Assembly: GCA_946410555.1 (NCBI GenBank)
Contig: CAMKAT010000001.1
Span: 47,108-111,107 of the forward strand
Direction: 5' to 3'
From: an uncultured Bacillales bacterium
GTDB lineage: Bacteria > Bacillota_I > Bacilli_A > RF39 > UBA660
Length of the DNA: 64,000 nt
Program-made: the position numbers and the translations under genes
Shown here: positions 12,170-63,392 of the stretch, piece by piece
Layout of the letters: every line of letters begins with the position of its first letter
Position numbering within the stretch: position 1 is the first letter of the stretch
The notes under the pieces: model-generated
What the model was told of the DNA's origin: nothing
Database searches by the model: none
What the model saw: only the letters and a program-made list of their open reading frames with translations

Positions 12170-12175
12170 AGTAAG

Positions 12176-14442: not shown

Positions 14443-14445
14443 GAT

Positions 14446-14476
14446 GAAACTCAAGATTAATTCTTGAGTTTTTTTA
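14446..14476 (+). terminator. Rho-independent terminator
   Basis: AACTCAAGA-TTAA-TTCTTGAGTT followed by T7. Confidence 0.7.
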
Positions 14477-14607
14477 TGTTTCTACATTTATATTCTTCAA
14501 ATGAATTTATAATTGCTAGAAAATATATTCTTATTTCTAATATGTAAACTATATAAGTGATACAAATGATTAAAGTATTTAAATGATATAATTATTAAGG
14601 TGAGATT

Positions 14608-15135: not shown

Positions 15136-15143
15136 AATAATAC

Positions 15144-15171
15144 TTGAAACTATATAATTAATTATGTATAA
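15144..15171 (+). promoter_or_regulatory. SigA-type promoter for the T-box-leuS operon
   Basis: -35 TTGAAA, 16-nt spacer, extended -10 TGTATAAT. Confidence 0.5.
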
Positions 15172-15177
15172 TGTGTT

Positions 15178-15370
15178 TTAAGCAAGTGAAGGAAAAGTAG
15201 TAGTTTACAGAGTACTTAAAGAGAGTTCACGGTTGGTGTAAGTGAATAGTATGAAGTTTATGAACTTGTTTCTGGATGTATTAGGATGAACCCTTTATAG
15301 TTCAATAAAGTATAAAATTAAGGTGGTACCACGGTCTTTCGTCCTTTGGATGAAAGGCTTTTTTTATTTT
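15178..15370 (+). ncRNA. T-box riboswitch leader (leucine, specifier CUU)
   Basis: Conserved T-box AATTAAGGTGGTACCACGG at 15316-15334; candidate specifier CTT at 15215-15217 followed by AAGAGAG; terminator hairpin and T7 run at about 15335-15370. Confidence 0.8.
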
Positions 15371-15385
15371 AAGGAGGAATTAATT

Positions 15386-15745
15386 ATGAATACAATAGGT
15401 TATATATTTGTATGTTTACTTATCTTTATAGTAGTGCTCTCATTCTTAAGACTCGTTACTATTATGAATGTTAAGAAGAAAACTGAAGAGATTTCTGTAC
15501 CTTTAAAATATATTAAGAAAAAATATAATTTAAAGTTTAGAGAAAGAAAATCAAAACAAGTACGATTATATATTGATATAGTAAATACTATAGCAATAGT
15601 AATACCAGTATATTTATTACTGTTTATTGATTTAAAAATAAATAAAATATTATTATATTTAATCATGTTAATTGTATTCATAGTACTAGTTATTAGTGGA
15701 TATAATTTAATAGGTATAATCATGAAGAGAAAGGACGATAAATAA
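15386..15745 (+). CDS. Small 3-TM membrane protein (119 aa) lying between the T-box and leuS
   Basis: RBS AAGGAGG 8 nt upstream of the ATG; stop overlaps the leuS ATG (TAATG). The track start at 15323 (MVPR) lies inside the T-box motif ATGGTACCACG and is an artefact. Confidence 0.55.
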   Translation: MNTIGYIFVCLLIFIVVLSFLRLVTIMNVKKKTEEISVPLKYIKKKYNLKFRERKSKQVRLYIDIVNTIAIVIPVYLLLFIDLKINKILLYLIMLIVFIVLVISGYNLIGIIMKRKDDK

Positions 15746-18156
15746 TGGAATATAATTTTAAAGAAATTGAAAAAAAGTGGCAAAAATATTGGGATGATAA
15801 GAAAACATTTGAATGCAAAAATGAAGGTAAAAATCCATACTATATCTTAGTAGAATTTCCATATCCTTCAGGAGCAGGTCTACATGTAGGACATGTAAGG
15901 AGTTATACTGCACAAGATGCAATCGCAAGAATGATGCGTATGCAAGGTCACAATGTATTATATCCAATGGGATGGGATGCATTTGGTGCACCAGCAGAAC
16001 AATATGCAATTAAGAATCATATTCATCCAAAAGATGCCGTAAGAGAAAATATTAAAACATTTAAAACTCAAATGAAGACTCTAGGTTTCTCATTTGATTG
16101 GAGTAGAGAATTCTCTACAACTGACCCAGATTACTATAAATGGACTCAATGGCAATTCCTACAATTTTATAAACATGGAATGGCTTATAAAGATACAATT
16201 CCAGTAAATTGGTGTCCACAATGTAAGACTGTACTTTCAAATGAAGATGCAGCAGGTGGAGTATGTGAAAGATGTGGTTCATCTGTAGTTCAAAAAGAAA
16301 AGAGTCAATGGATGTTAAAGATGTCTTCTTATTCAGAAGATCTACTTACTGGTCTTGCAGATACTAATTTTGCAGATAAAGTAAAACTAGCTCAAATTAA
16401 CTGGATCGGTAAATCTACAGGTGTAGAAGTTAATGTTGATATTGTAGGTGGAGGTAAGTTTAGTATATTTACTACTTGTCCAGAAACTATTTATGGTATT
16501 ACATTCTTTGTAATAGCTCCAGATGGAAAACTAATTAAAGAACTTATGCCAAGAGTAGAAAATCCAGATGAAATTAATAAATACATTGAAGAAACTAAAA
16601 AGAAATCTGCAATGGATAGAACTGAACTTAATAAAGGTAAAACTGGTGTAGAAGTTAAAGGTATTAAAGCTATTAATCCAGTTAATGGAAAAGAAGTTCC
16701 AATCTTCCTTGGAGACTTTGTACTTGGAGATTATGGTACAGGTGCAGTTATGGCTGTTCCTTCACATGATCAAAGAGACTTTGAATATGCTAAAGAACAC
16801 AATCTAGAAATTATTAAAGTAATAGACTGTGGTGATATTACAGAACATGCTATTGAAAAGACAGAATACATGCATCATGATTATAAGATGATTAATTCTG
16901 AAGAATTTAATGGTATGGTAGTAGATGAAGCAAGAGAAAGAATCTCTGATATGCTTGAAGAAAAAGGTATAGGTAAGAGAGTTAATAATTATAAAATGAG
17001 GGACTGGATCTTCTCTAGACAAAGATTCTGGGGTGAACCAATTCCAATGATTAACTGTCCTGACTGTGGTTGGGTACCAGTTCCTGAAGAAGAATTACCT
17101 CTATTACTTCCAGATGTAGCAGAATATGAACCAACTGATAATGGTGAATCTCCACTTGCAAAGATTACTGATTGGGTAAATTGCAAATGTCCAAAGTGTG
17201 GTAAAGATGCAACAAGAGAAACAGATACAATGCCAAACTGGGCAGGTTCTTCATGGTACTTCCTAAGATTTATGGATGCACATAATGATAAAGAATTCGC
17301 ATCAATGGATGCAATGAAATATTGGAACAAGGTTAATTGGTATAATGGTGGAATGGAACATGCTGCTAGACACTTACTATATGCAAGATTCTGGGTTCAA
17401 TTCTTATATAATATTGGTTTAGTTCCAAATAAAGAAATGATTGACACAAGAGTATCTCATGGTATGGTACTTGGATCAAATAATGAAAAAATGTCTAAAT
17501 CTAAGGGTAATGTAATTAATCCTGATGATATAGCAAATGAATTTGGTGCAGATACTCTAAGAGTTTATGAAATGTTCATGGGTGATTATCAACAAGATGC
17601 ACCATGGAGTACAGATTCTTTAAAGGGATGCAAACGTTTTATAGATAAAGTAATAAGAATTAAAGATAAAGTAACTGATTCAGAAGAATATACTAAATCA
17701 CTTGAATCTATTCAACATAAAACTATTAAGAAAGTTCAAGAAGATTTAAAAACTATGGGTTACAACACAGCAGTCAGTGCATTAATGATTTTAACTAATG
17801 CATATGATGATCAAGAAACTATTACTAAAGCAGATTATAGATTACTATTAACTCTATTAAATCCAATTGCGCCTCATGTAACTGAAGAGTTAAATGAACA
17901 ATTAGGATATAAGCCAATCTGTGAATCAACTTGGCCAACATATGATGAATCAAAAACTATTGAAACTGAAAAAGAAATTGGAGTTCAAGTTAATGGTAAA
18001 CTTAGAGCTACTATTAAAGTTAATGTAGATGATTCAGAAGATTCATTAAAAGAAAAAGCATTGAAAGAAGAAAATGTTAAAAAGTTTACTGATGGTCATG
18101 AAATAGTTAAAGTAATAGCTATCAAAGGTAGAATTGTTAATATCGTTGTTAAATAA
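15745..18156 (+). CDS. leuS: Leucyl-tRNA synthetase
   Basis: HIGH motif (PYPSGAGLHVGH), KMSKS (KMSKSKGN), editing domain, 803 aa. Confidence 0.97.
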   Translation: MEYNFKEIEKKWQKYWDDKKTFECKNEGKNPYYILVEFPYPSGAGLHVGHVRSYTAQDAIARMMRMQGHNVLYPMGWDAFGAPAEQYAIKNHIHPKDAVRENIKTFKTQMKTLGFSFDWSREFSTTDPDYYKWTQWQFLQFYKHGMAYKDTIPVNWCPQCKTVLSNEDAAGGVCERCGSSVVQKEKSQWMLKMSSYSEDLLTGLADTNFADKVKLAQINWIGKSTGVEVNVDIVGGGKFSIFTTCPETIYGITFFVIAPDGKLIKELMPRVENPDEINKYIEETKKKSAMDRTELNKGKTGVEVKGIKAINPVNGKEVPIFLGDFVLGDYGTGAVMAVPSHDQRDFEYAKEHNLEIIKVIDCGDITEHAIEKTEYMHHDYKMINSEEFNGMVVDEARERISDMLEEKGIGKRVNNYKMRDWIFSRQRFWGEPIPMINCPDCGWVPVPEEELPLLLPDVAEYEPTDNGESPLAKITDWVNCKCPKCGKDATRETDTMPNWAGSSWYFLRFMDAHNDKEFASMDAMKYWNKVNWYNGGMEHAARHLLYARFWVQFLYNIGLVPNKEMIDTRVSHGMVLGSNNEKMSKSKGNVINPDDIANEFGADTLRVYEMFMGDYQQDAPWSTDSLKGCKRFIDKVIRIKDKVTDSEEYTKSLESIQHKTIKKVQEDLKTMGYNTAVSALMILTNAYDDQETITKADYRLLLTLLNPIAPHVTEELNEQLGYKPICESTWPTYDESKTIETEKEIGVQVNGKLRATIKVNVDDSEDSLKEKALKEENVKKFTDGHEIVKVIAIKGRIVNIVVK

Positions 18157-18181
18157 GGAAGTTAATCTTCCTTATTTTTTA
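18155..18181 (+). terminator. Rho-independent terminator of leuS
   Basis: AAGGAAG-TTAAT-CTTCCTT followed by a T-run. Confidence 0.7.
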
Positions 18182-18242
18182 TTTTTTACTTAATAATTGT
18201 TACTTTGCTCTTAAAATGATAAGATAAATATGGAGAAAGCTT

Positions 18243-18998
18243 ATGAAATGTAAGAAATGTAATAGTGAAATAGAAGATAAATTATTAATATGTCCTAAAT
18301 GTGGAGCTATTTTAAAAGAAGAAAATGAGAAATATCATCATAATTATGCTAATGAATCATTGAGGTTATTTGCATCAAAATTAACTGAAGAAGAATATGA
18401 TTCTGATTATGATAATAAAACTAATCAAAGAACTTCGATTAAACCTTTATTAAAAAATAGTCTTTTTTGGATAGTTAATTTATTAGTAGTTATTTCTTTT
18501 ATAATTGTTTTATTCCTTATACATGATATTAAACATATAAATATTGGTATATTATCTTTAATATTTATTATTTATGAATTAAGTAGTATTTCATATCAAT
18601 GTTTATTTTATAAAGCATATAAAGAACCATACTATGGAATAATACCAATATATAGACTTAAAGTATTATTTGAGATATGTAATAACGAAGGAAGTACAAA
18701 AAACTCAAGAACTTTGTTAGGTATTATTTTAGCTTATGTAATATGGTATTTACTATCTTTTTCACCAATGTATGGTCTTTGGTTTATATTCTTTGAAGAA
18801 GCATTTATTATAATTACAATTGTATCGATTATTCTTTATATAAGATTACGTATTAAAGTGCTAGGGGATTTATCTATGAGATTTACATCTAACCAAAAAT
18901 CTAGTATATATGCTATTCTTTTTCCATATATAGTAATATCAATTTATGCTTTTAGTAGTAAATATAAATATACTAAACTAAATGATTCTTATCTATAA
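18243..18998 (+). CDS. Membrane protein with an N-terminal CxxC-x-CxxC zinc ribbon
   Basis: KCNSEIEDKLLICPKCG at the N-terminus, then four TM helices. Confidence 0.45.
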   Translation: MKCKKCNSEIEDKLLICPKCGAILKEENEKYHHNYANESLRLFASKLTEEEYDSDYDNKTNQRTSIKPLLKNSLFWIVNLLVVISFIIVLFLIHDIKHINIGILSLIFIIYELSSISYQCLFYKAYKEPYYGIIPIYRLKVLFEICNNEGSTKNSRTLLGIILAYVIWYLLSFSPMYGLWFIFFEEAFIIITIVSIILYIRLRIKVLGDLSMRFTSNQKSSIYAILFPYIVISIYAFSSKYKYTKLNDSYL

Positions 18999-19021
18999 AA
19001 AAACTCATCAATTGATGAGTT

Positions 19022-19408
19022 TTATTTTGTTAATAAATCAAAAGTTTTATCTATATTATTTTGATCTGCATATTGATAATGGAAATCAGTATCTTCATAT
19101 ACAGGAATTAAATGAACATGATAATGTTTAACTAATTGTTCAGAACCATAGTTATTAACTATTTTAAGTCCACAAGTACCTAACTTATCATAAATTAAGT
19201 CTTTCATTTTTTTAGCAACACTATGAATATGAGTTAATGTTTCATCATCAATTTCTGTAAAATCAGTTATATGTTTTTTAGAAACAATTAACATATGCCC
19301 ATTAGTATTTGGATTAGCATCCATAAAAACAGTTACTATTTCATCTTCAAAAACAACTTTTGTTGGTATCTCACCATTTGCTAATTTGCAAAAAATACAA
19401 TCTTTCAT
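19022..19408 (-). CDS. HIT-family (histidine triad) nucleotide hydrolase
   Basis: Histidine triad HYHVHLIP, 128 aa. Confidence 0.85.
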   Translation of the reverse strand: MKDCIFCKLANGEIPTKVVFEDEIVTVFMDANPNTNGHMLIVSKKHITDFTEIDDETLTHIHSVAKKMKDLIYDKLGTCGLKIVNNYGSEQLVKHYHVHLIPVYEDTDFHYQYADQNNIDKTFDLLTK

Positions 19409-24138: not shown

Positions 24139-25368
24139 ATGAAAAAAATAAGAAATATGGTTTTAGTATTTGCTTTATTCTTTACATGTATGGTTAGTGC
24201 AAAAGCTAATATTTATAGTACACGTAATGATTGTATAGCAGATGCTGGAGGTAACACTAATCTTTCTACTGTTTCAACTAAAACAACAGTTAGATCATGT
24301 GTACAAAACTATTGTAATGCTCAACTTGGAACTTATGATACATATATGGTTAAAGAAGTAGTTGCTTATGGAACATGCGCAAATGGAAATAGAAATCCAT
24401 ATAAGACTAAAGTTTTTGGATATAACAGAACAGGTGCATGTGCAACACCACAACGATTAGCTGAAATAGTATATACTAATATGGATATTATATATGATTG
24501 TACTAGAACTTCTAATGGTAGTGCTTATAGTCAATCAGGTAATACTACTAAGAAAACTACTACAGGAAGTGGTGGAGGTAATGCTACAAGTCCAACTACT
24601 AAACCAACTACCAAAAGAACTGGTCCAACTACAACTGCTAAGATAGGTGGTAATGATACAACTACAACAACAAGAGTTACAACTCCAGGTGAAAATACTA
24701 CTGAAACAACTACAACAACTAGAGTATTAACAAATGATGCGTCCATTAAGAAAATTGTTATTAATGATAAATTTGATTTAGGATATAAAGAAGAAACTAA
24801 AGAATATGCAATCAAAGTTCCTTATAGTTTAAATGACTTTGATGTATATGTAGAAACTAGTGACCCATATGCTAAAGTAGAAGTTTATGGAACTAACTCA
24901 GTTTCATCTCTTGGTGGAGTTATTGATATTGTTGTTACAAGTAGTGATGAATCAACAACTAATCAAGTTAAAATAAATGTATCAAGATATACTAAAGAAG
25001 AAGGAGATTGTTCTCTAGTTGATATTTATATTAAAAACTATAGTTTAGATTTTTCATCTACTAAAGAACAATATACTTTAAACTTAACTAATAAAGATAG
25101 ATTTTTAGAGATTGAAGCAACTCCAAGTAATCCATCTTCAATTTATACAATCAAAGGAAATGAAAAATTAAAGAATAATAGTAAGATTGAAATCTTAGTA
25201 GAAGCAGTTGATGGTACAACGTGTACTTATGTAATTACTACTAAGAAATCATCTAAATTATTACTTTATTTACTAATTGCTGTAGTCGTAGGTGTAGGTT
25301 TATACTTTGCTATTAAGAAACTTATTGAACTTGCAACTAAAGGTAAAAATAGATATAGATATGAATAG
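24139..25368 (+). CDS. Surface protein with a Cys-rich N-domain, Thr-rich linker, two Ig/cadherin-like beta-sandwich repeats and a C-terminal TM anchor
   Basis: Signal peptide; eight Cys in the first 110 aa; poly-T/G linker; C-terminal LLLYLLIAVVVGVGLYFAIKK anchor. Confidence 0.5.
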   Translation: MKKIRNMVLVFALFFTCMVSAKANIYSTRNDCIADAGGNTNLSTVSTKTTVRSCVQNYCNAQLGTYDTYMVKEVVAYGTCANGNRNPYKTKVFGYNRTGACATPQRLAEIVYTNMDIIYDCTRTSNGSAYSQSGNTTKKTTTGSGGGNATSPTTKPTTKRTGPTTTAKIGGNDTTTTTRVTTPGENTTETTTTTRVLTNDASIKKIVINDKFDLGYKEETKEYAIKVPYSLNDFDVYVETSDPYAKVEVYGTNSVSSLGGVIDIVVTSSDESTTNQVKINVSRYTKEEGDCSLVDIYIKNYSLDFSSTKEQYTLNLTNKDRFLEIEATPSNPSSIYTIKGNEKLKNNSKIEILVEAVDGTTCTYVITTKKSSKLLLYLLIAVVVGVGLYFAIKKLIELATKGKNRYRYE

Positions 25369-25395
25369 ACATTTAATATGTCTATTTTATTTTGC
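25365..25395 (+). terminator. Rho-independent terminator
   Basis: TAGACAT-TTAAT-ATGTCTA followed by a T-rich tract. Confidence 0.55.
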
Positions 25396-25450
25396 TCTCT
25401 TGTTAATAGATTTAATTATAGTTATAATTATATTAAAGTAGGGTGATAGA

Positions 25451-25969
25451 ATGAGAGATGCAATTGCAGGAGCATGGTTATACTCATTAATACTTGTATT
25501 TGTAGTTATACTAGTAGCTTTTATTGCAATATCAATAAATTATAATAAAACATATAAATTAAAAACAACTGTGGTTAATATAATTGAAGAGTATCAAGGA
25601 GTTAACCCTGAGAGTGTTAAAAAAGTCGGAGGATTCTTAGCAGCTAATGCTTTTCGAACAGAAAGATATTGTAATAAAGTTGTTAATAAAGGTGAAAGAT
25701 ATATTGGTATAACTGATGGTAAGTTAAGTCCTATGTATGAAAGTGGTTCTCCTGCTGAGAAAACTGCTAAACCACAACAAGTATGTATAAGTAGAGACGC
25801 TCATACTTCAAATTATGATGGTAAGTCAGCATATACAGATTATTACTATAATATATATATGTCTTTTGATTTCTCATTACCAGTATTCGGAGACATATTT
25901 AAGTTCTCAGTTAACGGTTCAACAAATGCTATATACTATCCAGTAGATACTAATAACTGGGGTAATTAA
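25451..25969 (+). CDS. TadE/TadF-like pseudopilin candidate (N-terminal TM, C-terminal YPVD motif), paralogue A
   Basis: MRDAIAGAWLYSLILVFVVILVAF N-terminus; paralogous to 26383..26955 (shared MR-D/E-AI-G-W start and a C-terminal YPVD). Confidence 0.4.
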   Translation: MRDAIAGAWLYSLILVFVVILVAFIAISINYNKTYKLKTTVVNIIEEYQGVNPESVKKVGGFLAANAFRTERYCNKVVNKGERYIGITDGKLSPMYESGSPAEKTAKPQQVCISRDAHTSNYDGKSAYTDYYYNIYMSFDFSLPVFGDIFKFSVNGSTNAIYYPVDTNNWGN

Positions 25970-26056
25970 AAAAAGTGTAAAAACTTTTTACAATTTTATT
26001 GAATATAGAAAGTAAATATATTATGATATACATATAATAAGGAGGAGATTGATAAA

Positions 26057-26353
26057 ATGAAAGACGCAACAGGCGAATTAAGTATGACAGCAGTTGCAGT
26101 AGTAGCCATCGCTGCAATCGCATTATTATTTCAACAATTTGTATGGCCAGTAATTCAAAGAAACATTCAAACCAATGCATATTGTTCACAAACACAATCA
26201 TGTGAATGTGGTAAAGGTAAAAAAGTTGATGCAGAAGTTGGAACAATTACTTCAAATTCAGATAAAACTTGTTCATGCATTTATCTTGATGACGCAGGTA
26301 AAACTCATGGAGTATTATGTCCAAACAATGCTACTGACGCAGCATCTAAATAA
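26057..26353 (+). CDS. Flp-like mini-pilin candidate (98 aa) with six C-terminal cysteines
   Basis: Strong RBS AAGGAGG. MKDATG-ELSMTAVAVVAIAAIALLF resembles Flp prepilins (G, then a hydrophobic helix) but lacks the canonical E5/Y6. Cysteines at 44, 49, 51, 72, 74 and 88. Confidence 0.4.
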   Translation: MKDATGELSMTAVAVVAIAAIALLFQQFVWPVIQRNIQTNAYCSQTQSCECGKGKKVDAEVGTITSNSDKTCSCIYLDDAGKTHGVLCPNNATDAASK

Positions 26354-26382
26354 TAAATTCTAAAAATTAAAGGAAAAATTAA

Positions 26383-26955
26383 ATGAGAGAGGCTATAGGA
26401 GCGACATGGATTTTCGGAATTGTTATTGTATTTATAGTATTATTTACTGGATACTTAGCATTTTCAGTTAATTATGCCAAAGCCTTTACAATTAAAGATA
26501 AAATAGTTGATGTTTTAGAAAAATATAATGGGCCTGGTAAGAGAAACTCAAGTAGTTTTACCGGGCCTGTTTTAGATGAAATTAATGCTGGTATGAAAAG
26601 TATTAGATATAGTTCTAAAGGTAGTTGTTATAACGTAGGACTAGAAGTTTTTGAAAATGATAAAACTAAATTACAAAATAGATCAAAAACTATCATGGGT
26701 GTTACTAATGCAACTGCTGAAGTATATGCTAATAGTGCATTAACATTTAAACAAAGTAAAAACTATCATTATTGTGTAATTAGACAACAACAAGATAAAC
26801 TTGATGAGAAAAGTATAGGATTTTCAAATTATTTTGTAGCAACATTCTTTAGTATGCATGTTGAGATAATCAATTTACATTTGAATTTCTTTGTTACAGG
26901 ACAAACTAAAAATATTAGTTATCCAGTAGATGGTTTCTTATCATTTGAGGAGTGA
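26383..26955 (+). CDS. TadE/TadF-like pseudopilin candidate, paralogue B
   Basis: MREAIGATWIFGIVIVFIVLF N-terminus; C-terminal ISYPVDGF. Confidence 0.4.
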   Translation: MREAIGATWIFGIVIVFIVLFTGYLAFSVNYAKAFTIKDKIVDVLEKYNGPGKRNSSSFTGPVLDEINAGMKSIRYSSKGSCYNVGLEVFENDKTKLQNRSKTIMGVTNATAEVYANSALTFKQSKNYHYCVIRQQQDKLDEKSIGFSNYFVATFFSMHVEIINLHLNFFVTGQTKNISYPVDGFLSFEE

Positions 26956-27977
26956 ATAGAATGAACGTAATAGTTACAAATCAAAATAAAGCATTATTAG
27001 ATCAATTAAATGTAGATATAATTAAAAAAATCGAAGGTGAATATGAAGTATCTGAATTATTATCTAAGTTCGTTAATTTACAATTTGATAAATTAATAAT
27101 TGATATTACTTCAATTAAGAATTATACAGATAATGCAGTAATGACTTCATTTGCAAAATCAGTTGATCCAAATAGAGTTATCATTTTACTTAATGATAAT
27201 CCAACTGTTAATACAAGACCTTATATAGTTAATTTGATTAATAATGGAATTTATAATTTTTCTAGAAATATCGAAGGAGTAAAATACTTATATAATACTC
27301 CAAATACACTAGCTAGTGTACAATCTATTTTAAACCCACCTGTAAAGACTGAAAGTGCACCAACTGTAAATGCAATAGTTAATACTCAACCAACTACTAC
27401 TGAAAGTAGTAATGAAGTATATGCAAATAATAATTCCAATTTAAGAATCCCAATATTTGGAAAAAAGATTATTGGTTTATCCAATACGACAATGCATGCA
27501 GGTGCATCAACATTAACAAACATGATGGTAAGACAACTTAATAATAAAGGAATTCCTGCTATTGGAATCGAAATGAATAGACAAGACTTAATCTATTATA
27601 GAAGTGATAAATTATTCTCAGCTATGAGTAGATTAGACTTAGAAAGAGTTGTTAAAGATCACAACGATGCTGCAGCTATAATCATTGATTTAAATGATTT
27701 CCCTGAAGCAGATAAATATTGTAATTCAATTATTTATCTAGTTGAACCATCATTCATTAGATTAACTAAATGCATAAGAAGAAATAAAAATGCATTTGTT
27801 GAAAAGAAAAATGAAAAGGTAGTTTTAAATATGAGTTTTGTTTCAGATGATGAATTATATGATTTTGAAATTGAAACAGGAGTAAAAGTATTTGATAATA
27901 TTCCACCATTAAATGATAGAGATCAAGATGCTGGAGAAATAAACGAATTCTTACGTAAATTAGGATTTAATATTTAA
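26952..27977 (+). CDS. TadZ/CpaE-like protein: receiver-like N-domain plus a ParA/MinD-like domain with a degenerate P-loop
   Basis: N-terminal beta-alpha repeats resemble a REC fold but lack an evident phospho-acceptor. The second domain reads KKIIGLSNTTMHAGASTLT where ParA/MinD has KGGVGKTT, and a Walker-B-like AAIIIDLND follows. Confidence 0.45.
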   Translation: MNRMNVIVTNQNKALLDQLNVDIIKKIEGEYEVSELLSKFVNLQFDKLIIDITSIKNYTDNAVMTSFAKSVDPNRVIILLNDNPTVNTRPYIVNLINNGIYNFSRNIEGVKYLYNTPNTLASVQSILNPPVKTESAPTVNAIVNTQPTTTESSNEVYANNNSNLRIPIFGKKIIGLSNTTMHAGASTLTNMMVRQLNNKGIPAIGIEMNRQDLIYYRSDKLFSAMSRLDLERVVKDHNDAAAIIIDLNDFPEADKYCNSIIYLVEPSFIRLTKCIRRNKNAFVEKKNEKVVLNMSFVSDDELYDFEIETGVKVFDNIPPLNDRDQDAGEINEFLRKLGFNI

Positions 27978-28045
27978 CAGTCAAATAATTAATTTTAGTT
28001 GACATTACTTAAAGCAATAATTTATAATATCTTTAGAAAAGAGGA

Positions 28046-28399
28046 ATGAATATGTTATTAGCGAGCGAATCCATTGGTACTTTTTGTAGCAAGACTGCAG
28101 GTTTATTACAATATGTTGGATATGCATTAACAATTTTCAAAATTGCTATTCCACTAATCATCATTATCTTTGGTATGATGGATTTTGGTAAAGCTGTTGT
28201 ATCTGAAAAAGATGAAGACGTTAAAAAACAAGCAGTAAAATTATTAAGAAGAGCAATCGCTGGTGTAATTATTTTCTTTATTCCAACATTAGTAATTTGG
28301 ATTTTCGAAACTGTTAATGATTACAGTAGTGAAGCTGGACAATTTAATACTTGCAAAGAATGTTTATTACATCCAGGTAGTTGTCCTGCAGGAGAATAA
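28046..28399 (+). CDS. Small 2-3 TM membrane protein with a C-terminal Cys motif (CKECLLHPGSCPAGE)
   Basis: RBS AAGAGGAATGA; 117 aa; VirB2/TrbC-like size and topology (speculative). Confidence 0.35.
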   Translation: MNMLLASESIGTFCSKTAGLLQYVGYALTIFKIAIPLIIIIFGMMDFGKAVVSEKDEDVKKQAVKLLRRAIAGVIIFFIPTLVIWIFETVNDYSSEAGQFNTCKECLLHPGSCPAGE

Positions 28400-44846: not shown

Positions 44847-45188
44847 ATGGCTGTAAAATTAAGATTAAAAAGAATGGGTTCTAAACAAAAACCATTTTAT
44901 AGAATTATAGTTGCTGATTCAAGAAGTCCAAGAGACGGAAGATTCATCGCTACAGTTGGTACTTACAATCCATTACTTGCTGATAACAAATATTCTGTTA
45001 AAGAAGAAGAAATTATCACTTGGTTAAACAATGGAGCTCAACCTACTGATACAGTAAAAAGCATTTTAACTCAAACTGGTGTTTGGGCTAAGTACAAATC
45101 AACTAAAACTGTAAAAGCTGAAAAAACAACTAAGAAAGCTGCAACTAAGAAAACTACTGCTAAAAAAACTACTAAGAAAGAGGCTTAG
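44847..45188 (+). CDS. rpsP: 30S ribosomal protein S16 with a K/T/A-rich C-terminal extension
   Basis: [33 protein letters not shown] start; 113 aa, of which about 30 aa form the basic tail. Confidence 0.9.
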
Positions 45189-47437: not shown

Positions 47438-47956
47438 ATGGAAGAAATAGTAAATAATATATTAGAAGAAATGAAAGGAATCTCTTATGGTTGGGTAGAA
47501 CCAAATGGAGTAAAACATTTTAAATCAAAACAAAATTACTTTAAAGAATTCTATAGAATAATGACTATAGATGAAATTAAAGAATATAAGGTAGGAACCT
47601 GTTTTGAAAGTGCAAAGTATGCTGCATACTTACTTAAAGAAAAAGGGCTTAAACCTAGATCATTTATGATTAATTATGATGATCCTAATAAGCTTGCTAA
47701 ACATACATTCACAGTAGTAAATGATGATGAATATTACTATTGGGTTGAAACTTCATGGGTTAATGACAAAATTAAATTTGATTCACTTGAAGATTTAATT
47801 GAAGCAGTTATAAAGAGATATCCAAGAATGTATTTAATTGAAAACTTAAATAGAGATTTAATTCATGTATATGAAATAGATGAATTTTATGATCACATGT
47901 CATTAAATGATTTTGTTGAAAAAATTAAAACAAATGAAAAGGTAATAGTTAAATAG
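47438..47956 (+). CDS. Hypothetical protein; possible Cys-His-Asp (transglutaminase/papain-like) fold
   Basis: Candidate catalytic Cys (GTCFESAKY) and His (AKHTFTVV); this is speculative. Confidence 0.3.
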   Translation: MEEIVNNILEEMKGISYGWVEPNGVKHFKSKQNYFKEFYRIMTIDEIKEYKVGTCFESAKYAAYLLKEKGLKPRSFMINYDDPNKLAKHTFTVVNDDEYYYWVETSWVNDKIKFDSLEDLIEAVIKRYPRMYLIENLNRDLIHVYEIDEFYDHMSLNDFVEKIKTNEKVIVK

Positions 47957-49403
47957 CTATTACCTTTTTAGTTAGTAAACATAATAATGATAAGACAATT
48001 ATTAAACAATTTAGGGACAATTCATCTCCAGTGGAGACTAAAGATTTAGAAATAGTATCTGATTCTTCATCAGTTGGGTGGTTTATTATTATGTCTACTT
48101 CAGAATCATTATTTAATATTTTCTCATCGTTTAAATGAATAAGGTTGATTGGAGATTTCTTATAGTCATGATTACTATGAATTACAGTTTCGACTAGGGT
48201 ATATCCATCTTTTCCTTTGGCTTGTACTAACAAATAATCACCAAGTTTAAGATGTAAATCAAATTTACCATCTTTATCAGTTGTATAAGTTCTAATTAAA
48301 TTTCCTTTATCATCGTTAAGTTCGAATATGGCATTTTCTTCAGGAAATTCATTATCATAAGTTTTATAAATAGTATAGTTATTATAAATAGGGTCGATAT
48401 AAAAGTTTTTAACAATCTCACTATTAATGTAATTAGAGAAAGTATATTCTTTATCATTTAACACATAATTATCAGGAACACTCTCAAGATAATATTTATG
48501 ATTAGAAGTGTCATTGAATGTATAAGTTGAATTACATGGAATAGAGTTACCATCAACATTAACTGAACACTCATTAATTATTTCTTTATTTTCAGAATCT
48601 TTAACAAATACTGTTAGTTTAACGGGTTTAATATCTAGTTCTATTGATTGATTTAACTCTGGTATATTACCAGCCATAAGTAAACTTTGATTATCACCAT
48701 CAGTGAATATCTTATAGTTTTCATTATATTCTTTTTTCTTATTAAAAAATATTGTTTTCTTTCCAACTTTATCGAAAGTAATACTAAATGTATTATTACT
48801 ATTTATAGATACATCCGTAGAAGTATAATTTATTAGTGTCTTAGATTTATCTTCAAAATTAATTATATTACCAATATGTAAATCTTGTTCAGTTACTAAA
48901 TTAAGCTTCTTAGAATGTTCATTTATTTTACTTTCGATATTCTTAATATAAAAAGTTAAATCTAATATTTCACCTTCACCAAATAGTTTAGTGGAATATA
49001 CAGGATAACTACCAGTTAATTCTTTCCATATAATACTTTGAGTAGCTAGACTATATCTATGATCTATATTATTACCATAAAGATAACCATAATGAGCAGC
49101 AAGTAGTATTCTAATCTTATTTTCACTAGTCATATTATAATTATTATCTAGACTATATGTATTTCCTAACTTCTTACCAGGTTCAATACAATAGACTGGA
49201 TTGTTATTTATATAATAGGAAACTGCTTTATCAGAAAACTGTGTACCATCACTATTGTATCTTGTGTAGTAATAATCACTATTAACTTTTACAACGTTAT
49301 ATGCATATACCTTTGTTATAGATAAAAAACATACAACAAAAGAAAATATTACAATAACAATTTTTTTCATTAATCCTCCTTTCCAGTTACTATGATTGCA
49401 CAT
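47949..49403 (-). CDS. Cell-wall-anchored surface protein with the sortase-type sorting signal LVSTGDE
   Basis: Signal peptide; C-terminal LVSTGDE, then a hydrophobic segment and KK tail; beta-rich repeats (possible Cna-B-like); RBS GGAAAGGAGGA. Confidence 0.55.
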   Translation of the reverse strand: MCNHSNWKGGLMKKIVIVIFSFVVCFLSITKVYAYNVVKVNSDYYYTRYNSDGTQFSDKAVSYYINNNPVYCIEPGKKLGNTYSLDNNYNMTSENKIRILLAAHYGYLYGNNIDHRYSLATQSIIWKELTGSYPVYSTKLFGEGEILDLTFYIKNIESKINEHSKKLNLVTEQDLHIGNIINFEDKSKTLINYTSTDVSINSNNTFSITFDKVGKKTIFFNKKKEYNENYKIFTDGDNQSLLMAGNIPELNQSIELDIKPVKLTVFVKDSENKEIINECSVNVDGNSIPCNSTYTFNDTSNHKYYLESVPDNYVLNDKEYTFSNYINSEIVKNFYIDPIYNNYTIYKTYDNEFPEENAIFELNDDKGNLIRTYTTDKDGKFDLHLKLGDYLLVQAKGKDGYTLVETVIHSNHDYKKSPINLIHLNDEKILNNDSEVDIIINHPTDEESDTISKSLVSTGDELSLNCLIIVLSLLCLLTKKVIAI

Positions 49404-57750: not shown

Positions 57751-57825
57751 AGAAACATGACAAAGACAAGTAATCTTGTCTTTTTTTATTTTTTTATTTT
57801 ATAATTAATATAGGTGAGTGAGTTT

Positions 57826-58806
57826 ATGAGAAAAGTGAATAAGAGAAAAAAGAAAAAATTTAGTTTAAAGAAATGGTTAAAAGGATTCACACTTGTTGAA
57901 CTATTAGCAGTCATAGTAATCCTTGCAATCATTATGATTATAGCTATTCCAAATGTATTAAATGTAATGGAACAAACTAAGAAAAAATCATTCGGTGAAT
58001 ATATATTAAAAGTATCAAAAGCAACCGAAGATAAATATATGAAGGAACAACTAACTACAGGTAATAGTAATATATGTTTAATATATGATATTACAAAAGA
58101 TTTAGATTTACCATCAACTGGTGATTATAAGGGATATACAATAGTTAATACTGATAATAATGATCATATTATTTATATAACTTTGTATGATAAAGATTAC
58201 ATGGTATATGGTCTTAAGAATACTCAAATTGATTCAGTTGATATCAAAAAATTCACAAATGAAGATGATGCAGGTCTAACTAAAGAAAACCTTGCAGGTG
58301 TAGCAAAATGTTCTACATTTACTTATAAAGAAAAAACAACAATCGAAGAGAGTAAAACCGGTACTGCTTCAAGTAACCCAACTAATAGTCAACCTAAGGG
58401 CTTATTAACAGGTACTAAAAGAGGTAAGAATAATTGGGTTGGAGTTTATAATAATGGTGATTTGGTAGGATGCTACAGTCTTGTATCAAAATATATCGGA
58501 GATCCTAAAAACAATCTTATATTATCTCAATATGGTGGAACAGAAGAAAACTATTGTACAACTGCAACAAGCACTGATCCTAACGTATGTGAACAAGGTA
58601 AGTCTACAGTTTGTTGTACTGGAAATCAAGGTGATAAAGTATATAATGCCTTAACATTTAGTGAATCTCCTACATATCCAAAAAGCTGTGGCATTATTTA
58701 TGCTAAAGTTAATCCAACAGTAGATCCTGACTTCTATTTATTTATGCAAACTTCTTTAAAATATGGTGGAGGAGAACTTCCAGCAAATGGAGTATATGAA
58801 GAATAA
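57826..58806 (+). CDS. Type IV pilin (prepilin N-terminal cleavage/methylation domain) with a long poly-lysine leader and a Cys-rich C-terminus
   Basis: KG/FTLVELLAVIVILAIIMIIAIPN class-III signal; about 20-aa basic leader; start at the ATG at 57826, because the track GTG at 57814 lies inside RBS AGGTGAGTGAG. Confidence 0.75.
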   Translation: MRKVNKRKKKKFSLKKWLKGFTLVELLAVIVILAIIMIIAIPNVLNVMEQTKKKSFGEYILKVSKATEDKYMKEQLTTGNSNICLIYDITKDLDLPSTGDYKGYTIVNTDNNDHIIYITLYDKDYMVYGLKNTQIDSVDIKKFTNEDDAGLTKENLAGVAKCSTFTYKEKTTIEESKTGTASSNPTNSQPKGLLTGTKRGKNNWVGVYNNGDLVGCYSLVSKYIGDPKNNLILSQYGGTEENYCTTATSTDPNVCEQGKSTVCCTGNQGDKVYNALTFSESPTYPKSCGIIYAKVNPTVDPDFYLFMQTSLKYGGGELPANGVYEE

Positions 58807-58890
58807 CTTTACGTTATTCTTTTTTTATTCATAATATTACTTGAGTAAAAATATTTAAAACTTTATACTTATATTAAGAGGTAGGTTTAT

Positions 58891-59619
58891 ATGCAAAAAG
58901 TAAGTAAGAAGAAAAAGAAAAAGTTTAATTTTAAAGAATGGATCAAAGGATTTACATTAGTTGAATTATTAGCAGTAATAGTAATTCTTGCAATCATAAT
59001 GATAATAGCAATTCCAAATGTATTAAATGTAATGGAACAATCAAAGAAAAAATCATTTATTACATTTGCTCAAAAGATTAATAAACAAGTTCAAGAAAAA
59101 TACTTACAAGATAGTATGACTAAGAGTTATCCAATAAGTAGTGGATATAATTACATAACTTATAATATAGATGAGTTAGGCATTTCAAGCGTAGGTAATT
59201 ATCGTGGAATTGCAAGTATACTAATAGATACAAGAGGTTCTGAAGAATCATTCTTTGTTCAAATATTTCTTGCTGATGATGACTATTATATTTCCTACGA
59301 TGCCAAAAAAGAATTTGGGGCTGCTAATTTAGATGTTGCATCTTTATCAAAAACATCTGAAATAGAATCTCAATTTGTAGCTTCTGGTATGACAAATTTC
59401 AAAGTTAAAAATTTTGCCAATAAAGAACTATTTAAAAATGTACTAGATAATTTCGGATGTAATACAATTGATGTGCATTTAATAGATGGAGTAACAACTA
59501 ATGAACTAATAAGCATTCCAAATCACTCATCTAATTTTTCAGGAGATACATGTACTGGTAATGATTTTCAAAATGCTATGGTGTTAGCACTTACAAAATC
59601 ATATACAGACTCATTATAA
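58891..59619 (+). CDS. Type IV pilin, paralogue B
   Basis: Leader MQKVSKKKKKKFNFKEWIKG, then G/FTLVELLAVIVILAIIMIIAIPN; about 75% identical to the next gene. Confidence 0.75.
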   Translation: MQKVSKKKKKKFNFKEWIKGFTLVELLAVIVILAIIMIIAIPNVLNVMEQSKKKSFITFAQKINKQVQEKYLQDSMTKSYPISSGYNYITYNIDELGISSVGNYRGIASILIDTRGSEESFFVQIFLADDDYYISYDAKKEFGAANLDVASLSKTSEIESQFVASGMTNFKVKNFANKELFKNVLDNFGCNTIDVHLIDGVTTNELISIPNHSSNFSGDTCTGNDFQNAMVLALTKSYTDSL

Positions 59620-59712
59620 AAGAATAACTTTACGTTATTCTTTTTTTTATTAATAAAATTACTTGAGTAAAACTTTTTAAAACTTTATACTTAAAATAAG
59701 AGGTAGGTTTAT

Positions 59713-60441
59713 ATGAAAAAAGTAAGTAAGAAGAAAAAGAAAAAGTTTATTTTTAAAGAATGGATCAAAGGATTTACATTAGTTGAATTACTAGCAGTAA
59801 TAGTAATTCTTGCAATCATAATGATAATAGCAATTCCAAATGTATTAAATGTAATGGAACAATCAAAGAAAAAATCATTTATTACATTTGCTCAAAAGAT
59901 TAATAAACAAGTTCAAGAAAAATACTTACAAGATAGTATGACTAAGAGTTATCCATTAAAAAATGGAACTAATTACATAATTTATAATATAGATGAGTTA
60001 GGCATTTCAAGCGTAGGTAATTATCATGGATGTGCAAGTATACTAATAAATACAAGAAATTCTGAAGAATCATTTTATGTTCAAATATTTCTTGCTGATG
60101 ATGACTATTATCTTATTTATGATGCAAATAAAGACTTTGGGTCTGCTGATTTAGATGTTGCATCTATATCAAAAACATCTGAAGTAGAATCTCAACTTTT
60201 AGCTTCAGGTATGACAGATTTCAAAATTAAAAATTTTGCTAATAAAGAATTATTTAAAATTGGACTAGAAAATTACGGATGTAATACAGTTGATCTGCAT
60301 TTAATAGATGGAGTAACAACTAATGAACTAACAAGTATTCCTAATCACTCATCTAATTATTCAGGCGATACATGTACTGGTAATGATTTTCAAAAAGCTC
60401 TGTTGTTAGGATTTACAAAATTATATACTGATTCATTATAA
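59713..60441 (+). CDS. Type IV pilin, paralogue C (tandem duplicate of B)
   Basis: The first 75 aa are nearly identical to B; the shared C-terminal NEL-SIPNHSSN-SGDTCTGNDFQ region is conserved and the middle is divergent. Confidence 0.75.
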   Translation: MKKVSKKKKKKFIFKEWIKGFTLVELLAVIVILAIIMIIAIPNVLNVMEQSKKKSFITFAQKINKQVQEKYLQDSMTKSYPLKNGTNYIIYNIDELGISSVGNYHGCASILINTRNSEESFYVQIFLADDDYYLIYDANKDFGSADLDVASISKTSEVESQLLASGMTDFKIKNFANKELFKIGLENYGCNTVDLHLIDGVTTNELTSIPNHSSNYSGDTCTGNDFQKALLLGFTKLYTDSL

Positions 60442-60540
60442 AAGAATAACTTAGGTTATTCTTTTTTTAGTTGTATTGTATAATTTACTCATTTTCAGTA
60501 TAATTATATTTGTAGAATAATGGAGTAAAGAAGGGTGATT

Positions 60541-62595
60541 ATGAATACTAATGCAACAATACTTGTTATCAGTTTTATATTTATTTTCATAACATCAGTT
60601 CTTTATTTCACTAAGAAAAAAGTCCTAGATAAAGAGAATGTATTTTTATCTATTCTTTTAATAATAAGTCTTTTCTGTTTAGGTTTTGAATACTTAAACA
60701 TTACTTTTATAAATAGTAATACAATTGGATTTCCATCGATTATCCATAATACATATGAAATATTTTTAATAATATGGATTACTATATTTTTCTTATATTA
60801 TATAACTTTAATAATACCTTCGGATGATAAAAAATCATTATCTACGATACTGGTAGAAACAGGGGTTTTATTCATTTATCTTTTAGCAGTAGCAGTAATA
60901 ATTACTTTAATTCCATCTAATTTAGTGATGGGTAAAGAATTGTTCTATGAGTCAGGAAAAAGAATATTCTTTATTATATTTATAGTATGTTTTTATATGT
61001 TATATCTAGATATAAATATATTCTTAAATAAAGATAAGAATATAAGAAAATTACTTCCATTAATAACTTTTCAATTGCTATTTTTCTCTGGAATAATAGT
61101 TAGAAAATATGTATTATCTCCAGAGCAAATAATGCCATCATTTGTTATTTCGCTTGTAGTACTTATTATGACTAATACAATTGAAAATCAAGATTTAAAA
61201 TTTATTACTGAGTTATCAGTAGCCAAACAAGAAACTGAAAAAGCTACTCGAGCTAAATCAGACTTCTTATCAAGTATGTCACATGAAATAAGAACTCCTT
61301 TGAATGCAATCATAGGATTATCAGAAGTCATTGCTGAAGAAGATGTAAGTGATTCAGTTAGAAAAGAACTTAAAGATATTAATTATGCTTCTCAAACTCT
61401 TCTAGAAATCGTGGGAAACATCCTAGATATCAACAAAATTGAATCTAATAAGATAGAAATTCAAAATATGAATTATTATCCAAATGAAATAGTTAATGAA
61501 CTTCTTAAGATGAATAAAGTAAGAATCGGAGATAAAGATATTAAGTTAGAATCTCATATCTCACCAGATGTTCCTTATGAACTTGTTGGTGATAAAATTC
61601 ATATTAAACAAATTATTAATAATCTTTTAAGTAATGCTATTAAATATACTGATAAAGGATCAGTATCACTTAACTTATTTGCTAAGAATGATGGCTTTGT
61701 ATGTCACTTAATTATTCAAGTCGTAGATACGGGTAAGGGAATTAAGATTAGTGATTATAATAAATTATTTAATAAGTTTGAAAGATTAGATACAGAGATT
61801 AATTCTACAATCGAAGGTTCTGGTTTAGGACTTGCAATTACAAAAAGATTAGTTCAACTTCTTAATGGATCGATCAGAGTAAAAAGTACTTTTGGAGAAG
61901 GTTCTATCTTTGAAGTAGAAATACCTCAATCAATAAGTATGATGATTAATCCAAAACAAGTTGAATTAGAATATAGAATTGAGCAAATTGAATCAGGTGA
62001 ATATGAACTTAATAAAGCTTCAATTAAGAAAATACTTCTTTGTGATGATTCTCAAATCAATTTAAGAATTGCAACATCACATTTAAAAGGAGAATTTTTA
62101 AAAATAGATACTTGTTTATCTGGTAGAGATGCTATTGAATTAGCTCGTAAGAATCATTATGATTTAATCTTCTTAGATTTAAAAATGCCTAACATGGATG
62201 GATTTAAAACTTTAGATGAACTAAAACGAATCAAAGGATTTAATACACCAGTAATTGCATTCACAGCAGTCGAAGAAGATGTAGAATCAACTTGTTTAAA
62301 TGCAGGCTTCTCAGGATTCTTGATTAAACCATTCTCTAAAGAACAAATAGTTAATAAAGTAAATGAATATACTAGTAACTATAAAGAACTTAGAAATAAT
62401 TTCAAAACTGAAACTATTGAAAAAGAAGATGAAGGTTTAACTAATAAAAAAGAGTCAGTAGAAATAGAACCACTTAAACCAGTCGTAGATATTAAACCAC
62501 AAGTTATTAATGATACACCTGTAGTTCAAATACCAAAATCTACACCTAATGAAAGCACTATTCAACCAAGTATTAATTTTGATAAGAAAGAGTAA
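60541..62595 (+). CDS. Hybrid sensor histidine kinase: 7-TM sensor domain, HisKA, HATPase and a C-terminal receiver
   Basis: H-box SHEIRTPLNAIIG; N, G1 and G2 boxes (NAIKYTD, DTGKGI, GSGLGLAI); receiver with DD...D...K (ILLCDDSQ, FLDLKMP). Confidence 0.8.
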   Translation: MNTNATILVISFIFIFITSVLYFTKKKVLDKENVFLSILLIISLFCLGFEYLNITFINSNTIGFPSIIHNTYEIFLIIWITIFFLYYITLIIPSDDKKSLSTILVETGVLFIYLLAVAVIITLIPSNLVMGKELFYESGKRIFFIIFIVCFYMLYLDINIFLNKDKNIRKLLPLITFQLLFFSGIIVRKYVLSPEQIMPSFVISLVVLIMTNTIENQDLKFITELSVAKQETEKATRAKSDFLSSMSHEIRTPLNAIIGLSEVIAEEDVSDSVRKELKDINYASQTLLEIVGNILDINKIESNKIEIQNMNYYPNEIVNELLKMNKVRIGDKDIKLESHISPDVPYELVGDKIHIKQIINNLLSNAIKYTDKGSVSLNLFAKNDGFVCHLIIQVVDTGKGIKISDYNKLFNKFERLDTEINSTIEGSGLGLAITKRLVQLLNGSIRVKSTFGEGSIFEVEIPQSISMMINPKQVELEYRIEQIESGEYELNKASIKKILLCDDSQINLRIATSHLKGEFLKIDTCLSGRDAIELARKNHYDLIFLDLKMPNMDGFKTLDELKRIKGFNTPVIAFTAVEEDVESTCLNAGFSGFLIKPFSKEQIVNKVNEYTSNYKELRNNFKTETIEKEDEGLTNKKESVEIEPLKPVVDIKPQVINDTPVVQIPKSTPNESTIQPSINFDKKE

Positions 62596-62654: not shown

Positions 62655-63392
62655 ATGAAAAATAAAGGCTCAAGTATAATAATTTTATTTTTATGTATAT
62701 TATTAATTATATGCATTTATATATTTATAAATAGTGAATCTTCATTAGGAAGTAGTGATACAACAACTACAACTACAACTGTAACTACTACAAGTGAGAC
62801 AATTTATAATAATGATTCAATTCCGGATTATACAGGTAGTGCATATATTGCAATAAATGAAAATAAACCAAACTTTATTGATAGTGATTATAGTACAACT
62901 TCATTTGAAACTTATAGTCCTTTAGATAGCTTAGGCAGATGTGGAGTTGCTTATGCAAACATCGGTGTTGATTTAATGCCAACTGAAAAAAGAGGTAGTA
63001 TATCAAATGTTAAACCATCAGGATGGCAATCAGTTAAATATGATAATGTTCCTGGTAAATATTTATATAATAGATGTCATTTAATTGGTTATCAATTAAC
63101 CGGAGAAAATGATAATGAAAAGAATTTAATTACTTGTACTAGATTTATGAATGCTTCTACGATGTTATATTTTGAAGACTTAACTGCAGATTATATTAAG
63201 AAAACAAATAATCATGTATTGTATAGAGTAACACCTGTATATACAGATGATGATTTAGTAGCTAAAGGAGTTCAAATGGAAATATCTTCAGTGGAAGATA
63301 AATGTTCATCTCTTTGCTATAATGTATTTGTATATAATGTTCAAGATGGAATAAAAATAGATTATAAAACAGGTTTATCTGAAAGGAGTTAA
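62655..63392 (+). CDS. Secreted or membrane-anchored DNA/RNA non-specific endonuclease (EndA / DNA-entry-nuclease-like)
   Basis: Signal anchor, poly-Thr linker, catalytic region NRCHLIGYQL (RGH-type nuclease motif) and C-terminal domain. Confidence 0.6.
   Translation: MKNKGSSIIILFLCILLIICIYIFINSESSLGSSDTTTTTTTVTTTSETIYNNDSIPDYTGSAYIAINENKPNFIDSDYSTTSFETYSPLDSLGRCGVAYANIGVDLMPTEKRGSISNVKPSGWQSVKYDNVPGKYLYNRCHLIGYQLTGENDNEKNLITCTRFMNASTMLYFEDLTADYIKKTNNHVLYRVTPVYTDDDLVAKGVQMEISSVEDKCSSLCYNVFVYNVQDGIKIDYKTGLSERS

Follow-up and report, generated by a model that had tools for sequence, protein, structure and literature searches.

Three tandem type IV prepilin genes with lysine-rich leaders, two of them diverging duplicates, in an uncultured gut member of the Bacilli

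The type IV pili of Streptococcus sanguinis combine two or three near-identical major pilins, encoded in tandem and carrying 18-amino-acid (aa) leaders, with modular minor pilins that bear adhesive modules. Published prepilin leaders span 6 to 26 aa, with type IVb leaders of about 15 to 30 aa and type IVa-like leaders of up to 18 aa. More than 1,200 modular pilins have been catalogued in 264 architectures, and many more are expected among unannotated proteins. Here, we describe a locus of three same-strand open reading frames (ORFs), genes A, B, and C, at positions 57826 to 60472 of a 64-kb stretch of DNA (the window) from an uncultured Bacillales bacterium (contig CAMKAT010000001.1 of assembly GCA_946410555.1). 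Each gene encodes a protein with a class III signal peptide. We think it likely that all three are functional prepilins, that cleavage takes place after Gly20, and that a type IV filament machine not linked to the locus assembles them, with B and C as variable subunits of the filament body and A as a modular adhesin presented at the tip.

A first-pass annotation, made by a model from the sequence alone, had proposed three tandem type IV pilins at this locus, and all three ORFs lie where it placed them, each encoding an intact prepilin-type protein (Table 1). The predicted proteins share a hydrophilic leader with Gly at position -1, followed by about 21 hydrophobic residues broken by Glu5. Following the KG that ends the leader, the mature N terminus reads FTLVELLAVIVILAIIMIIAIP in A, B, and C, with Phe as residue 1 and Glu5 present, and the identical segment FTLVELLAVIVILAIIMIIAIPNVLNVMEQ stands directly after the leader in all three proteins. 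The prepilin models PF07963 and TIGR02532, named beforehand as the test on which the assignment would hinge, recognize A, B, and C above their curated cut-offs (24.3 to 24.4 bits for a cut-off of 21.2 and 24.8 to 25.6 bits for a cut-off of 16.3, respectively). With full-length family models (ComGC, GspG, PilA, and the ComG minor pilins), alignment is confined to the N-terminal helix, and the scores fall far short of the cut-offs. No other prepilin motif occurs elsewhere in a six-frame translation of the window. The mature proteins would comprise 306 aa for A and 222 aa each for B and C. A GTG codon at 57814, four codons 5' of the ATG of gene A, sits within the Shine-Dalgarno sequence AGGTGAG.

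Comparing A with B over alpha1N (codons 21 to 52) reveals eight synonymous codon changes and a single nonsynonymous one, indicating that the helix is under strong purifying selection. Indeed, alpha1N is near-invariant over 127 family members. Judged by their sequences, A and B are older paralogues than the B/C pair, and the identity of B and C at synonymous sites of alpha1N as well reflects recent duplication or homogenization.

The locus has much in common with the S. sanguinis pilins PilE1 and PilE2 (PilA1 to PilA3 in CGMH010): a monoderm host, highly similar tandem paralogues whose number (two or three) differs between strains, a long leader (18 aa in S. sanguinis), Phe1, Glu5, and modular pilins alongside. 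However, the S. sanguinis pilins are encoded within a complete pil locus (PilD, PilF, PilT, and others), whereas the window genes have no linked machinery. Further, the S. sanguinis globular domains show no detectable sequence similarity to those of B and C, which are about 80 aa larger, and the leaders described here differ in being poly-Lys with a conserved end-box, F-x-[FL]-K-[KE]-W-[LI]-K-G. The type IVb pilins TcpA, BfpA, and PilS resemble the locus in having a leader of 15 to 30 aa and a larger mature protein (here, 20 aa and 222 to 306 aa), but A, B, and C have Phe1 and, in the FTLVELL N terminus and the alpha1N helix, conform to the type IVa/ComGC kind. Genes of a type IVb operon (tcp, bfp, or pil-R64 type) were not found in the window.

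Table 1. Coordinates of the pilin genes, their parts, and associated sequence features (window positions; RBS, ribosome-binding site; dG, folding free energy)
Feature	Coordinates	Strand	Description	Evidence or remark
Terminator upstream of A	57762..57783	+	Hairpin and T-run closing the upstream operon (252-aa and 227-aa ORFs)	Terminator scan; dG -9.7 kcal/mol
Promoter-like site, gene A	57776..57805	+	TTGTCT-18-TATAAT, then RBS AGGTGAG	Consensus match only
Gene A	57826..58806	+	326-aa modular prepilin from ATG	PF07963 and TIGR02532 above cut-off
Gene A, leader	57826-57885		Codons 1-20	
Gene A, pilin module			alpha1N with Glu5; module extends to about residue 165	
Gene A, linker			T/S/P-rich	
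Gene A, C-module	58384-58803		Cys-rich, beta-rich; residues about 187-326	
Tandem duplication	58799..60468	+	Two units of 821-822 nt: terminator, promoter, RBS, pilin gene	Repeat comparison
Terminator after A	58799..58826	+	Hairpin AAGAATAAC-tttac-GTTATTCTT and T-run; left edge of the 822-nt repeat	dG -8.8 kcal/mol
Promoter-like site, gene B	58841..58869	+	TTGAGT-17-TATACT, then RBS AAGAGGTAGG	Exact duplicate upstream of C
Gene B	58891..59619	+	242-aa prepilin: 20-aa leader and 222-aa mature protein	
Terminator after B	59620..59647	+	Hairpin	dG -9.3 kcal/mol
Promoter-like site, gene C	59663..59691	+	TTGAGT-17-TATACT	Consensus match
Gene C	59713..60441	+	242-aa prepilin, tandem paralogue of B	
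Gene-conversion tract in gene C	59956..60117	+	Codons 82-135, beta-sheet region	Carries B sequence in contig L001
Terminator after C	60441..60468	+	Hairpin; copy that has diverged from the other two (75% identity)	dG -10.1 kcal/mol

An AlphaFold model (AF2) of B was built with a 56-sequence alignment and has a predicted local distance difference test score (pLDDT) of 88.4 and a predicted template modeling score (pTM) of 0.78. The model consists of an N-terminal helix of 55 residues (residues 23 to 77), four strands within residues 86 to 137, and an extra alpha/beta part spanning residues 155 to 241. Its predicted topology, a long N-terminal helix followed by a four-stranded sheet, resembles that of pilins, whose lollipop fold has a helix of about 53 residues packed against an antiparallel beta-sheet. 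Cys190 and Cys221 of B are kept in at least 90% of the family, and this pair recalls the disulfide-bounded D-region of classical pilins.

Gene A shares its pilin module with B (48% identity over residues 1 to 127) and fits the definition of a modular pilin, namely, a pilin module, a linker, and an extra C-terminal module that is not pilus specific (Raynaud et al. 2021). It is built like the S. sanguinis proteins PilB (vWA module) and PilC (lectin module) and like CofB of enterotoxigenic Escherichia coli, in which a pilin module at the N terminus is followed by a short linker and an extra C-module. By analogy with these proteins, the C-module of A probably binds a ligand. It is mostly beta-strand and follows the pattern LLTGxKxGxNNWVGVY...GCY...NYCT...C...KSTxCCT...CG...GGxLPxxGVYE. 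The first-pass annotation had described this region as Cys-rich, and six Cys residues do lie within it; the full count for the protein is eight, the other two being in the pilin module. Unlike the modules of the described modular pilins, that of A has no match to a Pfam family, no solved structural neighbor, and only 13 relatives, which were identified by an exhaustive HMMER scan of residues 187 to 326 over 1.84 billion representative proteins. A word-index search with residues 159 to 326 (module plus linker) returned one close relative. About 10 of the C-module relatives are pilin-like proteins of 200 to 340 aa, and three are giant proteins with Big_3_5 repeats (Pfam); the latter provide a weak hint that the module could have an Ig-like fold, which is not a functional assignment.

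An alternative to an adhesive or motile filament is that A, B, and C are subunits of a competence (Com) pilus that takes up DNA. ComGC, too, is a prepilin of monoderms, its N-terminal helix motif is nearly the same, and its model (NF040999) is the best-scoring full-family NCBIfam model, with partial matches of 35.1, 39.9, and 38.6 bits for A, B, and C, respectively. An EndA/NucA-type nuclease (PF13930, E = 5e-26) is encoded 2.2 kb downstream, and comG operons are the vertically inherited type IV filament system of the Erysipelotrichales. However, the ComGC scores are about half of the 75-bit cut-off and come from the N-terminal helix only. ComGC is roughly 100 aa long and its fold has no beta-sheet, whereas the proteins of the locus are two to three times larger, with 222 aa in mature B and C and 306 aa in mature A, and have a predicted beta-sheet, four-stranded in the model of B. 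The genes also lie outside a comGA-comGG operon. We regard a role as Com pilus subunits as unlikely.

Relatives of these proteins are numerous. A word-index search gave 1,546 matches, nearly all of them unnamed metagenome proteins, and a profile scan using one genome per species identified more than 336 relatives, the best 80 of which supplied related loci for comparison. These 80 loci come almost entirely from uncultured gut metagenome-assembled genomes (MAGs) named "Bacilli bacterium," "Tenericutes," or "Erysipelotrichaceae." They carry prepilin-type genes encoding 130 to 1,200 aa, in runs of one to seven, amid housekeeping genes. Proteins identical to A and B are encoded on a 162,385-bp NCBI contig. 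Looking up the exact sequences of gene A, the nuclease, the histidine kinase, and the first ABC-type transporter ORF gave no match, that of B matched two short ENA contigs only, and a contig scan with B alone identified no relative. A literature search on the pilins of RF39, RFN20, or Tenericutes found nothing specific.

Several observations weigh against the view that A, B, and C are assembled into a filament by an unlinked machine. No T2SSE ATPase, platform protein, prepilin peptidase, or PilM/N/O is encoded in the window. Searches by tblastn with PilB/T/C/D/M/N/O returned nothing there, and a six-frame translation contains no PilD-type motif. The sole GspE-style Walker A match (position 1231) belongs to an ORF that reads by eye, without a family-library scan, as an ABC-type transporter. 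The absence of adjacent pilB, pilC, pilD, and pilM genes, already remarked on in the first-pass annotation, is borne out across all 64 kb. Among the related loci, tblastn with the complete Halobacillus pil cluster of locus L042 (PilB/T/C/D/M/N/O) and with ATPases of the clade found no ATPase within 10 kb in 78 of 80 and no PilC or PilD homologue in any. On the structural side, Foldseek found no solved pilin in the PDB matching the model of B or of A at E <= 0.001, and the similarity of these pilins to PDB sequences ends after the N-terminal helix. The model of A is of moderate quality (pLDDT of 74 and pTM of 0.47), and mature B and C, each of 222 aa, would be large subunits for a filament body.

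A genuine T2SSE ATPase (PF00437, E = 1e-123 to 1e-129) is encoded beside pilin genes in two of the related loci only, L047 and L070. Further, one MAG, RUG840, carries an ATPase-linked pilin locus together with three other scattered pilin loci. By analogy with RUG840, the source organism of the window may have one machine and many scattered subunit genes.

A scattered repertoire could also mean that these proteins are not filament subunits at all. Their class III signal peptide would then do no more than anchor or display them at the surface, in a lineage that has an expanded set of such proteins, along the lines put forward for the Sulfolobus bindosome. The bindosome provides a precedent in the literature, and the relatives do hold many dispersed prepilin-type genes across the size range given above, almost all of them without adjacent machinery; in L066, as many as seven large ones follow one another. 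Display alone does not, however, readily fit the invariant Glu5 and the near-invariant 21-residue helix, which form the filament assembly interface and are kept by purifying selection across paralogues, nor the T2SSE ATPases that adjoin pilins in two related loci. We consider this explanation quite unlikely.

Some of the related loci have features of their own. The T2SSE ATPase genes of L047 (1654-2847, minus strand) and L070 (5342-6691, minus strand) are divergent from the pilin genes. They encode proteins of 397 and 449 aa, respectively, that lack the long N-terminal domains of PilB, and they have no adjacent platform gene; a gene for a penicillin-binding protein lies near the ATPase gene in both loci. 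In L047, four tandem 167-aa pilins (3937-6203) are encoded beside the ATPase. L066 contains seven consecutive large prepilin-type genes (5987-19081) whose products have 367 to 687 aa after the cleavage site, and L071 contains a gene for a single 1,200-aa prepilin (9992-13624).

B and C are tandem duplicates, terminator and promoter included, as the first-pass annotation had proposed. The two genes are offset by 822 nt, and the repeat unit spans the terminator of the preceding gene to the stop codon. Their coding sequences are 92.3% identical at the DNA level and 84% identical at the protein level, and the 300 nt running from the promoter into the coding sequence are 97% identical. The differences are unevenly spread, with 3 in the first 243 nt and 53 in the remaining 486 nt. 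Consistent with this distribution, synonymous divergence (dS) is 0.025 in codons 1 to 75 and 0.123 thereafter, and the ratio of nonsynonymous to synonymous divergence (dN/dS) is 0.91 in the globular part. Seven 242-aa alleles show the same pattern: 6 variable sites fall in the first 81 residues, and 54 of the 161 residues from 82 to 242 vary. The diversification initially ascribed to a central region is real, but it extends over the whole globular part.

Each of the three genes has its own promoter-like site, ribosome-binding site (RBS), and hairpin terminator. The promoter-like consensus matches are no commoner here than in shuffled sequence. The hairpins after A, B, and C fold at -8.8 to -10.1 kcal/mol, each followed by a T-run; over their 28 nt, the terminators of A and B show 100% identity. 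The terminator upstream of the locus closes the preceding operon, indicating that gene A begins a new transcript.

Other assemblies allowed the locus to be compared between strains. Contig L001, from an independent ENA metagenome assembly, carries B and, with unchanged spacing, another 242-aa gene after it. It aligns with the window without gaps over 2,203 nt at 99.3% identity, and all 15 mismatches lie inside positions 59956 to 60117 of C, each of them being the paralogous B base. Since 15 of 15 differences switch C to the B state, they indicate a gene-conversion tract between the tandem copies. Near 60075 to 60120, C-state and B-state sites alternate within a few bases, which argues against a simple path switch by the assembler. 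A 5,862-bp contig of GCA_016648615.1 encodes, in this order, the 227-aa ORF, the 326-aa A, three B/C-type genes (242, 240, and 242 aa), and the kinase. Copy number is thus two in the window and in L001 and three in GCA_016648615.1. The conversion of C toward B in another strain, together with this difference in copy number, strengthens the earlier suggestion that the pair is a source of variation.

Segmental, nonreciprocal transfer between pilin paralogues that alters the exposed part is also a feature of the Neisseria pilE/pilS system, and the locus could in principle work in the same way, with one expressed pilin gene and one silent donor cassette. The transfer between strains does look unidirectional, from B into C, over a tract of 100 to 160 nt. 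However, conversion between pilin copies is the one hallmark of pilE/pilS that we find here; the other, promoterless and 5'-truncated cassettes that donate to one expression locus, was not seen in the window. The ORF of C is full length, its promoter-like site, RBS, start codon, and terminator were duplicated along with it, and both B and C look expressible. A Neisseria-style silent cassette is therefore very improbable. That the duplication is an artefact of assembly, a possibility raised in the first-pass annotation itself, can be practically dismissed: metagenome assemblies can mis-join repeats, and L002 stops within the B-C spacer, but two more independent assemblies carry two and three copies with identical spacing, 56 positions distinguish B from C, and the mosaic near 60075 to 60120 is too tight for a k-mer path switch.

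The leaders of A, B, and C (MRKVNKRKKKKFSLKKWLKG, MQKVSKKKKKKFNFKEWIKG, and MKKVSKKKKKKFIFKEWIKG, respectively) each have 20 aa, with 9 to 11 Lys and Arg residues and 0 to 1 acidic residues, and end in Lys-Gly. Positions K3, V4, K6, K8 to K11, F12, K15, W17, K19, and G20 are kept in all three. The leaders had been flagged as unusually long and basic; they are indeed Lys-rich, but their oddity was overstated, since 20 aa is within the published range. Leader length among the relatives is bimodal. Leaders of about 6 aa (MKKNKG) are the commonest across species, and Lys-rich leaders of 16 to 25 aa ending in [FI]-x-[LF]-K-[KE]-[WFY]-[LI]-K-G are the majority form among the closest homologues of B. 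Both kinds can occur side by side, as in locus L006, where adjacent genes have short and long leaders. Two alleles that are 97% identical (P0125 and P0003) have four and six Lys residues in the leader, an in-frame length change. Such differences in Lys count between B-type alleles (whose leaders occupy 58891-58950 and 59713-59772 in the window) suggest, at the level of sequence, that the AAG/AAA run undergoes slippage and that the exact length of the leader is little constrained.

Phase variation via the poly-A/poly-Lys tract was also considered and rejected: AAG and AAA alternate, and the longest A-runs of 5 to 6 nt are too short for a convincing slippage switch. A bolder proposal, to which we give little credence, is that the 16- to 25-aa poly-Lys leader with its amphipathic end-box defines a separate class of prepilin sorting or processing, coexisting in one genome with leaders of 5 to 8 aa. 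In that case, a single type IV filament machine, encoded apart from its subunits, would give the clade a general platform on which to display dozens of scattered pilins, many of them modular, with lengths of up to 1,200 aa. If true, a separate leader class could postpone cleavage or direct subunits toward a given machine or filament position.

The reading that we favor, in which A, B, and C are functional prepilins served by an unlinked machine, can be set out as a series of steps. In the host, an uncultured gut member of the Bacilli with a cell wall and 27% GC, each pilin gene would form its own transcription unit. The prepilin would enter the membrane such that the Lys-rich leader stays on the cytoplasmic side, following the positive-inside rule. 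A prepilin peptidase encoded elsewhere would then cut after Gly20 and methylate Phe1, and a machine comprising an ATPase and a platform, either ComG-like or PilB-like and also encoded elsewhere, would polymerize the mature subunit into a type IV filament. B and C would act in the major role, as alternative or co-polymerizing subunits of the filament body. Identity of their assembly helix would be maintained, whereas the exposed globular part would drift and be reshuffled through conversion and through gain or loss of copies, giving rise to strain-level surface variation. A, with the same pilin module and a Cys-rich, beta-rich module in addition, would take a minor role, most likely as a low-abundance, tip-presented "modular pilin" involved in adhesion.

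Next to the locus are two ORFs (252 and 227 aa), together with genes for a hybrid histidine kinase and a membrane-anchored DNA/RNA nonspecific nuclease. Scans of the two flanking ORFs against Pfam and NCBIfam gave no match, and no homologues of either were found beside pilins in 86 loci, so there is no evidence that they belong to the system. The kinase gene lies just downstream of C (60535-62595), and its product has a multi-transmembrane N terminus followed by HisKA, HATPase, and REC domains. Homologues that are 34 to 41% identical adjoin pilin genes in L041 (1487-3346) and L071 (2679-4481), the copy in L041 directly preceding a pilin gene at 3480. This proximity may reflect a regulatory link, although its occurrence in three of 80 loci could be due to chance. 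The nuclease gene (62655-63392) encodes a membrane-anchored member of the EndA/NucA competence-nuclease family.

Housekeeping ORFs recognized by eye in the window, without a family-library scan, include FtsA, FtsZ, LeuRS, TyrRS, HtpG, RNase J, and DnaD/DnaI, and a LytR-CpsA-Psr protein was confirmed with Pfam. Together, these genes indicate that the host is a walled Gram-positive bacterium. The GC content of the pilin genes is 26 to 29%, matching the 27% of the window, and their neighbors are housekeeping genes; the possibility that the locus is a mobile island was rejected.

Elsewhere in the window, a run of unannotated envelope genes (24139-28399, plus strand) includes one for a 409-aa Cadherin-like surface protein. 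Two paralogous products, of 172 and 190 aa, begin with MR[DE]AIGA.W and continue into a hydrophobic segment. A 98-aa Cys-rich protein (26057-26353) has a transmembrane segment at its N terminus, and the C-terminal half of a 341-aa protein appears, by eye only, to be a degenerate ParA/MinD domain. The run further includes a 117-aa protein with two transmembrane segments (28046-28399) that is weakly similar to the Mbov_0395/MPN385 pilin-like conjugal proteins (E = 0.006 to 0.04, far below cut-off). None of the genes in this run has a Pfam or NCBIfam match above threshold; the run may represent another envelope or filament module. Homologues of the 117-aa protein with 33 to 35% identity were found by tblastn in L033 (2117-3346) and L085 (2253-2501). 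In L033, the homologous segment forms the N terminus of a 409-aa protein encoded directly upstream of a gene for a 331-aa pilin.

Two other sites encode surface or secreted proteins. A 484-aa surface protein of the covalent-adhesin type (47949-49403, minus strand) combines thioester (TED) and SpaA-type domains with a C-terminal anchor. Two adjacent secreted or anchored proteins of 534 and 185 aa (12281-14442) are without family matches, and the Lys/Thr-rich tail of the 185-aa protein resembles the tail of ribosomal protein S16, encoded at 44847-45188.

The locus belongs to known kinds of surface-filament genes, of which it is a fairly ordinary example, and it leaves current concepts of type IV pilus function unchanged. 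Particular to it are a poly-Lys leader that ends in a conserved box, globular domains that lack annotation, the lack of linked machinery, and a conversion tract that is directly visible. Type IV filaments of monoderms are understudied, and almost nothing is known about them in the uncultured low-GC Bacilli, which are widespread inhabitants of animal guts. For these organisms, the locus is a compact natural case in which the assembly helix of pilin paralogues is homogenized and their exposed domain diversified, with copy number differing between strains. It also supplies two globular pilin domains and one add-on module without solved or annotated relatives. The large, scattered pilin repertoire of the clade could shape adhesion and interactions with the host or with phages.

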